This document shows, one piece after another, positions 18,028-18,221 of a DNA stretch of 64,000 nucleotides. The first letter of the stretch is position 1. The number at the start of each line of letters is the position of its first letter. The translations under genes were made by a program, and so were the position numbers. The stretch covers positions 1 through 64,000 of the forward strand of contig CAXHJY010001087.1 in NCBI GenBank assembly GCA_964016885.1. The letters are read 5' to 3'. The stretch comes from Eledone cirrhosa. Its lineage: Eukaryota. Under the pieces are notes generated by a model that worked only from the letters and a program-made list of their open reading frames with translations, did not search any database and was not told the DNA's origin.

Positions 18028-18221
18028 ATAGTTATGTAATAAACAAAATCCTGGATTTTTTCATTCTGATGATTGAAAGCAAAATTTTTTCCTTTTAAGA
18101 AACCACTGGTAAATGGAATAATTGCTTTATGTTGTTTATTACATAACTATTAAGCTGTTACCTACATAGAGCACTCTTTTTTCCTCGACTTTTCCGACGG
18201 AATTACTTCATTCACACATCA
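18028..18221 (+). mobile_element. ~195-bp hammerhead-bearing mini-element (Penelope-pLTR/retrozyme-like)
   Basis: Unique insert in satellite; hammerhead enclosed by a perfect 19-bp inverted repeat (18028-18046 / 18132-18150). Confidence 0.7.
18059..18118 (+). ncRNA. Type I hammerhead ribozyme (minimal stem III)
   Basis: Stem I TTTCATT/AATGGAA, core CTGATGA (18066-72), stem II TTGAAAG/CTTTTAA, GAAA (18099-102), stem III ACC-act-GGT, triplet GUA ending 18111. Confidence 0.85.

Follow-up and report, generated by a model that had tools for sequence, protein, structure and literature searches.

A probable 5′-truncated end of a Penelope-like retrotransposon with a hammerhead motif in Eledone cirrhosa

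Introduction

The window considered here, a 64-kb stretch of Eledone cirrhosa DNA, is eukaryotic and LINE-rich, and contains a short island (18028-18221) inside a (TA)n satellite, in which a hammerhead motif is flanked by an inverted repeat. The question raised by this locus is whether the island is, as originally predicted, a self-contained element of ~195 nt with an active, clamped ribozyme, or part of a larger element whose inverted arm is a trace of its insertion.

The hammerheads of Penelope-like elements (PLEs) are of type I, with a helix II of 7-8 bp and a short palindromic helix III, and are mostly dispersed single motifs from truncated PLEs for which dimers were predicted to be necessary (Cervera and de la Pena, 2014; PMC4209133); dependence on dimers and low in vitro activity have both been described (PMC4209133, PMC6765202). 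Specifically, PLEs of the Hydra clade insert into (TA)n and carry canonical hammerheads (Craig et al., 2021; PMC8557442). A type I hammerhead is also a feature of animal non-LTR retrozymes, which are short, ORF-less, low in GC and of high copy number, and which form tandem repeats of 150-450 bp with mostly canonical contacts between loop 1 and loop 2 (Cervera and de la Pena, 2020; PMC7229834). Occurrence as linear and circular RNA is a further criterion for retrozymes.

We hypothesise that a Hydra-type PLE, 5′-truncated to a 3′ portion with the hammerhead, the unit end and the tail, inserted into the (TA)n satellite to form the island, and that the left arm is a very short second cDNA primed on the opposite strand, an explanation that we consider quite probable. 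The related repeat family was studied in four of the six runs listed, two of contigs from one sample (X1 and X2) and two of RAD reads (X4 and X5), at 80% likeness.

The hammerhead motif

A script verified the core nucleotides, the 7-bp stems I and II, the 3-bp stem III and the cut after 18111 that had been claimed (Table 1), and the conserved core of CUGANGA, GAAA and UH around three helices is wholly present at 18059..18118. A hammerhead descriptor gave two matches in the real window (18066 and 21546), whereas each of 100 block-wise dinucleotide shuffles stayed without a match, the loosest setting included. The term textbook, which had been applied to this hammerhead, suits the complete core but not the base of stem II, where U10.1-A11.1 stands in place of the canonical G10.1-C11.1 pair, nor the loop of stem III (18102-110), which is only 3 nt long. 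Since U occupies position 10.1, directly after CUGANGA, in 15 of 26 Hydra clade rows (PMC8557442, counted by eye), the U-A pair departs from the canonical form and not from PLE forms, and a stem II base other than G-C is common to Hydra clade elements and this copy. The Rfam search proposed earlier returned no match in the whole window at gathering threshold and 27 weak ones up to E=10, none of them a hammerhead, and the motif at 21546 is likewise without an Rfam match. Judged by sequence, 18059..18118 is a genuine type I hammerhead motif for which self-cleavage is a prediction.

Table 1. Features of the island and its immediate flanks (window coordinates).
Feature	Position	Strand	Remarks
Likely target-site duplication, left copy (ATTATACATATA)	18019..18030		in (TA)n/TTATAC satellite; last 3 nt overlap the arm
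Left arm	18028..18046	-	most likely an inverted 5′-truncated copy of the element's last 16-19 nt; no tail
AAAATCC-T-GGATTTT palindrome	18045..18059		head-to-head junction; either a native hairpin that lost its loop or a fold-back
Stem I	18059-65/18112-18	+	7 bp, one G-U
CUGAUGA core	18066-72	+	read from sequence, script-checked
Stem II	18073-79/18092-98	+	7 bp, one G-U, in this copy
GAAA core	18099-102	+	script-checked
Stem III	18102-110	+	A-U, C-G, C-G; loop ACU (CC-ACU-GG)
Predicted cut site	after A18111	+	type I hammerhead motif 18059..18118
Rest of unit 3′ end	18119..18150	+	family copies ending at 18146-18150, then (AT)n
Tail	18151..18221	+	71 nt
GCUCU...AGAGC-AC hairpin	18154..18174	+	opens the tail, 43 nt after the cut
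Likely target-site duplication, right copy	18222..18233		direct repeat of 18019..18030; starts ATT

The repeat family and the ends of the element

The sequence at 18053-18206 represents a repeat family that is very abundant in this animal genome: a 226-nt stretch recovered 1939 and 2253 contigs and 3975 and 3568 reads through a likeness filter that is biased toward conserved reads, with alignments that cover only about 18053 to 18206. Upstream of 18053, 801 and 623 reads have loose ends carrying different sequence. The left arm is all but confined to this locus, with depths of 109-500 in the contigs (X1, X2) against 2e5-1e6 for the hammerhead, these being summed depths and not copy numbers, and of 1-7 in the reads (X4, X5) against about 1300-1570. 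Taken together, the low depth of the arm and the divergent reads upstream of 18053 indicate that the element is longer than the fragment and that the arm is no part of it. A self-contained mini-element of ~195 nt is thus not supported, because other copies continue beyond 18053 with different sequence, and the search for the arm in other copies, suggested in the original prediction, found it nearly absent from the contigs and reads of the family.

The catalytic core (18066-69, 18071-72 and 18099-18111) is free of variants among the 40 of 61 variant rows listed, and the free N7 position within it varies in 42-51% of depth. In the stems, 18116 G>A (30-42%) replaces U-G by U-A and 18096 T>C (13-30%) replaces G-U by G-C, the pair being kept in both cases, and loop II (18082-87) varies freely across the family. 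The exception is 18073 T>C (9-18%), which disrupts the basal U-A pair of stem II with no compensating change of 18098 among the variant rows listed. Apart from this change, variation among the homologues preserves structure in the rows listed, with the core spared and stem pairs kept. These thousands of natural alleles form a series in which selection on PLE hammerhead cleavage could be asked about. As separate observations, 20 contigs of run X2 join the GAAA/stem III half at 18099 to a different, GC-richer stem II, representing a second subfamily, and the read ends piled up at 18120/18123 and 18204 lie on AATT and were set aside as restriction-library ends, not biology.

At the downstream side, 16 contigs of run X1 have loose ends behind 18146 and 19 behind 18150, depth dips over 18151-58, and the hammerhead motif lies 32-39 nt before this family end point. 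Further on, depth drops over 18191-18222 and loose (AT)n/(CA)n ends occur behind 18208-18219. We infer that 18146-18150 is a first start site of reverse transcription, and that the tail is the first part of a following tandem unit, reaching as far as a second start site in an AC-rich stretch.

The inverted arm and the insertion

The inverted repeat is perfect, as claimed: 18028-46 is the exact reverse complement of 18132-50, extendable neither inward nor outward, and its 19 nt exceed chance, no perfect inverted repeat in 2000 island shuffles being longer than 12 nt. Its outer end coincides with the common family end point at 18146-50, and its outer 3 nt (ATA) overlap the flanking satellite or duplication. 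The proposal that the arms extend stem I into a rod fails on the 12-13 nt, mostly unpaired or weakly paired, that lie between them on each side. The suggestion that the left arm is an inverted copy made at insertion is, given its depth across the reads, the most likely one; the 19-bp clamp is then likely to be an insertion scar, and in this best explanation the arm has no role in the ribozyme.

A target-site duplication of 9-12 bp, ATTATACATATA, likely flanks the insertion. If there were no duplication, the satellite spacing would be 9-12 nt, a value found in 3 of 252 satellite intervals; the satellite unit variant seen at ATTATACATATA accounts for 65 of 256 units.

In the insertion that we propose, parent PLE RNA with tandem ends would be bound by its own RT-endonuclease, and the AT-rich target would be nicked on both strands about 9-12 nt apart. 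A first cDNA would begin at the outer start (~18221) and run through the tail and hammerhead to about 18045-53, and a second would begin at the inner start (18150) and halt after 16-19 nt. Joining of the two cDNAs head to head via A/T-rich microhomology would leave inverted repeats and a one-sided tail, and later decay would account for the changes at 18091, 18126 and 18186 and for the loss of 2 nt at 18154. The anole PLE Poseidon_Ac (PAc) provides a precedent, as both target strands are cut, with ATT preferred in vitro, and both are extended, reverse transcription starting at two sites that bound the tail, with an AC-rich start region (Frangieh et al., 2024; PMC11167929). The locus resembles it in the ATT after the right junction, in ATTATACATATA on both sides and in the outer and inner starts of the two copies. 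However, Poseidon_Ac belongs to a different clade, its hammerhead overlaps the start of the ORF and its reverse transcription starts 111-118 nt into the ORF (PMC11167929); the two-strand mechanism, known from a Poseidon-clade element, is carried over to the Hydra case by analogy. As a locus, the island is ordinary, another decayed PLE end; its value would lie in recording both PLE start sites and two-strand priming within a single 200-bp insertion.

The same element could also have acquired its arm from a single cDNA whose 3′ end folded back, annealed to itself via the native complementarity of AATAAACA(A) and TGTTTATT or at the AAAATCC/GGATTTT hairpin and was extended by about 10 nt. This we regard as unlikely, although AATAAA(C/T)ACA does occur shortly before 18053 in the upstream loose ends of the family, which means that some ~8-9 nt at the inner side of the arm may belong to the element itself, and 8 of the 10 joints listed are strand switches at 18052/18053. 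Only 2 of these 8 are also present in contigs, and the extension would have to stop by coincidence at the family end point 18150 and not enter the tail. Strand-switch reads at small palindromes are possible library artefacts.

With two-strand priming as the preferred reading, the junction itself allows some further description. The second fold-back that had been noted at this point is confirmed, 18045-51 and 18053-59 being perfect 7-bp complements, and in the upstream loose ends of the family AAAATCC stands about 19 nt before GGATTTT. A native AAAATCC...GGATTTT hairpin upstream of the hammerhead may be a hotspot of truncation and inversion, or the pattern may be a library artefact; the junction at 18038-59 may be partly native upstream sequence, or the native hairpin minus its loop. 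The whole locus is spanned by no read or contig among those aligned, so that the junction is known from the GCA_964016885.1 assembly alone. A single X1 contig (depth 6.6) joins 18045 to 18129, and comes either from a further copy that shares this arm or from an allele in which the hammerhead of this locus has been deleted between the arms.

Relationship to Penelope-like elements

The non-coding anatomy of the island makes it likely that this copy is the truncated end of a PLE of the Hydra group, and a new, decayed member of a known PLE type. Inverted 5′-truncated copies together with a tail at one end only are typical of PLEs, and Penelope-13_HM, for example, has such an inverted copy (PMC8557442); at our locus, a hammerhead in a terminal repeat, an inverted 5′-truncated copy at the 5′ end and a one-sided tail are all found. 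Among the PLE clades, Naiad was rejected, as it lacks a canonical hammerhead (PMC8557442) and the full motif is present at 18059..18118. The copy has inserted in (TA)n satellite, as Hydra clade elements do, but a (TA)n target is common to Naiad and Neptune as well and so is not diagnostic of Hydra.

The hammerhead and its surroundings provide closer points of comparison. Stem III has the 7-nt odd-palindromic form seen in most Hydra clade rows, where 7 nt separate A15.1 from U16.1 in 20 of 26 rows and 8 nt in 6 of 26 (PMC8557442, by eye), a comparison confined to Hydra rows, so that the form may not be unique with respect to Neptune, Poseidon or Nematis. The octopus element Hydra-1_oBim differs here in the loop base only ('acca a tggt' against 'acca c tggt' in this copy), whereas the stems and flanks of the Hydra-1_Obim hammerhead differ in sequence by eye. 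Hydra-1_Ajap and Hydra-1_Obim stop 36-40 nt beyond the cut (PMC8557442), and a unit end 35-40 nt after the cut is shared by the Hydra clade and our copy. On the other hand, the majority allele of the family has a longer stem II (11 bp) than the Hydra clade, the tail is 71 nt long against the 30-40 nt described, and this copy lacks an ORF. Relative to the PLE hammerheads of Cervera and de la Pena (2014), the motif is alike in being of type I, single and dispersed, with a long helix II and a palindromic helix III, but unlike in the two C-G pairs of helix III, in a helix I of 7 bp and in having U-A for G10.1-C11.1. The sequence GAAACCACTGGTA is absent from the supplement of PMC8557442.

No Hydra-like protein motif of a PLE ORF was found in six frames of the 64-kb window around this probably 5′-truncated element, and neither was an ORF combining a telomerase-like RT with GIY-YIG, nor any match in scans of the window for RWK, DKT and CxCX5C, the motifs that define the Hydra clade together with the lack of CCHH and RT phylogeny. 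The parent, and membership of the Hydra group, are therefore deduced from non-coding anatomy.

The absence of an ORF from the window, together with the very high abundance of the family, could instead point to a derivative of a Hydra PLE that is non-autonomous, resembles a retrozyme or a SINE, has a longer unit and is moved in trans; the locus would then be a truncated monomer of this derivative. The subfamily with a divergent stem II, seen as the X2 loose end before 18099, would fit this, and animal retrozymes have been proposed to derive from PLE pLTRs (10.64898/2026.07.22.740005). The island shares with retrozymes its shortness, low GC, lack of an ORF, type I hammerhead and abundance, but it stands alone in the window, as one fragment with inverted flanks, and no tandem joint, i.e. 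one that goes back, is present among the 10 joints listed, although a longer unit would hide one. Moreover, 5′ truncation alone yields many short 3′ fragments of autonomous PLEs (PMC4209133), and we consider such a derivative to be quite unlikely.

A candidate hairpin at the tail boundary

Taking the island as the end of a Hydra-type PLE, the hairpin that opens its tail deserves separate consideration. In this copy its 5′ strand is missing 2 nt (CT after 18154), which are present in 682 of 1093 reads (X4), in 534 of 932 reads (X5) and in 22-26% of summed contig depth; predicted folding energy is -2.2 kcal/mol for the copy and -8.0 kcal/mol with CT restored. A GCUCU...GAGC-AC hairpin is found 39 and 44 nt after the cut in Hydra-2_Ajap and Hydra-2_Amil, and Hydra-1_Ajap starts with one (PMC8557442); by eye it is clear in 3 of 6 new Hydra consensuses of that source, variant in 1 and unseen in 2.

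A scan of metagenomes by core pattern provided 33 loci, two of which, belonging to one family and both at contig ends (L003 and L005), form hammerheads with the core kept; the other 31 look like chance, with no hammerhead formed. As chosen by the hammerhead core alone, the two true hammerheads of this set have the hairpin and the other 31 do not. The two (L003:32-140, and L005 on the minus strand) represent a distant family that shares the CC-ACU-GG stem III and has unrelated stems I and II, and in L003 the hairpin lies 42 nt after the cut and has a covarying inner pair. Among 237 fetched loci the hairpin descriptor matches L003, L005 and L074, the last having been chosen by a pattern that already contained the hairpin motif. 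Its single match in the window, at 21644, follows the second hammerhead on the downstream side; matches also occurred in 2 of 200 shuffles. The sequence of the inner stem differs from family to family with pairing kept, a comparison made by eye for the Hydra consensuses. A MAFFT alignment, which misplaced the 21.5-kb hammerhead, served solely to view the shared hairpin.

We tentatively suggest, as a reading we hold to be possible rather than probable, that Hydra-type PLEs have, 39-44 nt past the hammerhead cut and at the boundary of unit end and tail, a further conserved RNA structure, which positions the RT at the inner start. Equally tentative, and to be taken with some doubt, is its proposed form, with an outer stem GCUCU/(A)GAGC that stays constant, a bulge of AU and an inner stem that covaries throughout, in coral, sea cucumber, Eledone cirrhosa and the metagenome host. 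The hairpin is, from its position, a candidate start signal for reverse transcriptase. If this were true, the inverted arm at 18028..18046 would be a direct record of initiation at the inner site, and the hairpin would be a possible RT-recognition element in a class of retrotransposon whose mechanism has only been outlined. A description of such a tail hairpin was not found in the open-access papers searched, which leave out most subscription papers, and the word hairpin occurs 0 times in PMC8557442.

Lesions and predicted folding of this copy

The copy at 18028-18221 departs from the family majority at three positions. At 18091 the family has G in 98-100% of depth and the copy has a private G-to-C lesion in stem II; at 18126 the family has C in 93-98% and the change in the copy creates TTGCTTT; the third is 18186. 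The first two have shortened stem II and created TTGCTTT. AAAGCAA (18076-82) and TTGCTTT (18122-28) are, as had been noted, perfect 7-bp complements, but with G at 18091 AAAGCAA pairs inside stem II, and with C at 18126 TTGCTTT is private to this copy. The contact thus exists only because of these two private mutations, which removes the basis for a tertiary contact of loop II; the competing off-state offered as the other possibility is real in silico, but as a lesion of this copy that is absent from the family majority.

Folding predictions point in the same direction, with the qualification that they leave out Mg, tertiary contacts and proteins, and that for AU-rich RNA a difference of 3-4 kcal/mol carries little weight. 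According to RNAfold, stems I and II have a mean pairing probability of 0.02 in this copy, against 0.76-0.96 for majority alleles, which speaks against the active ribozyme that it had been taken for, and the hammerhead state is placed 3.6 kcal/mol higher than the ensemble; a G at 18091 makes the hammerhead the minimum-energy fold (0.90 and 0.96 for stems I and II). When co-folded as dimers, majority alleles form a double hammerhead via their palindromic stem III, at -31.4 kcal/mol for the pair against 2 x -11.2 kcal/mol for the monomers, whereas in the dimer of this copy the double-hammerhead state is at -14.8 kcal/mol and the MFE at -22.4 kcal/mol. The copy is thus predicted to be largely misfolded and the majority allele to fold as a hammerhead; the copy is likely decayed, and in the family, cleavage probably takes place in dimers that pair by the palindromic stem III, possibly with the help of protein, which the Poseidon_Ac hammerhead requires (PMC11167929).

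The view that the island is a self-contained element of ~195 nt, with the 19-bp clamp and the loop II contact as working parts of an active ribozyme, is largely refuted by family depth and private bases, and we rate it as very improbable. The arm does lift stem I pairing of the majority allele to 0.76-0.90 from the 0.00-0.01 of 18053-18221, in a comparison from which native upstream sequence is missing, but it is nearly absent elsewhere in the family, the loop II contact needs two private bases, and this copy, arm included, still reaches only 0.02 for stems I and II. The want of a spanning record and of an Rfam match could suggest that chimeric assembly or reads produced the arm and chance the motif, but this is scarcely credible in view of the shuffles, the structured variation of the family, the likely target duplication and the contig joining 18045 to 18129, if counted as holding the same arm.

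Other islands and loci

No further copy of this hammerhead element was found within the 64-kb window, and scans of viral and prokaryote sequences (7, 25, 52 and at least 120 loci) gave no additional hammerhead among the matches listed. A second PLE-like island occupies 21234-21734. Its hammerhead core lies at 21546 and its stem III has 5 nt (C-AUU-G); the GCUCU...AUAGAGC hairpin (21644-65), which is intact, stands 58 nt beyond the predicted cut, and the left end carries a perfect palindrome of 24 nt (21233-56).

The satellite, at 14200-22600 and elsewhere in the window, is (TA)n broken by TTATAC(AC) every 17-25 nt and is packed with insertions. Many of the islands are LINEs with endonuclease and RT, several with a PHD finger, and have (GAT)n ends; we take these to be RTE elements. 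Finally, a SINE-like island at 16812-17016, in which no tRNA was called, is flanked by the duplication-like TTATATCACATAT and may resemble octopus SINEs.
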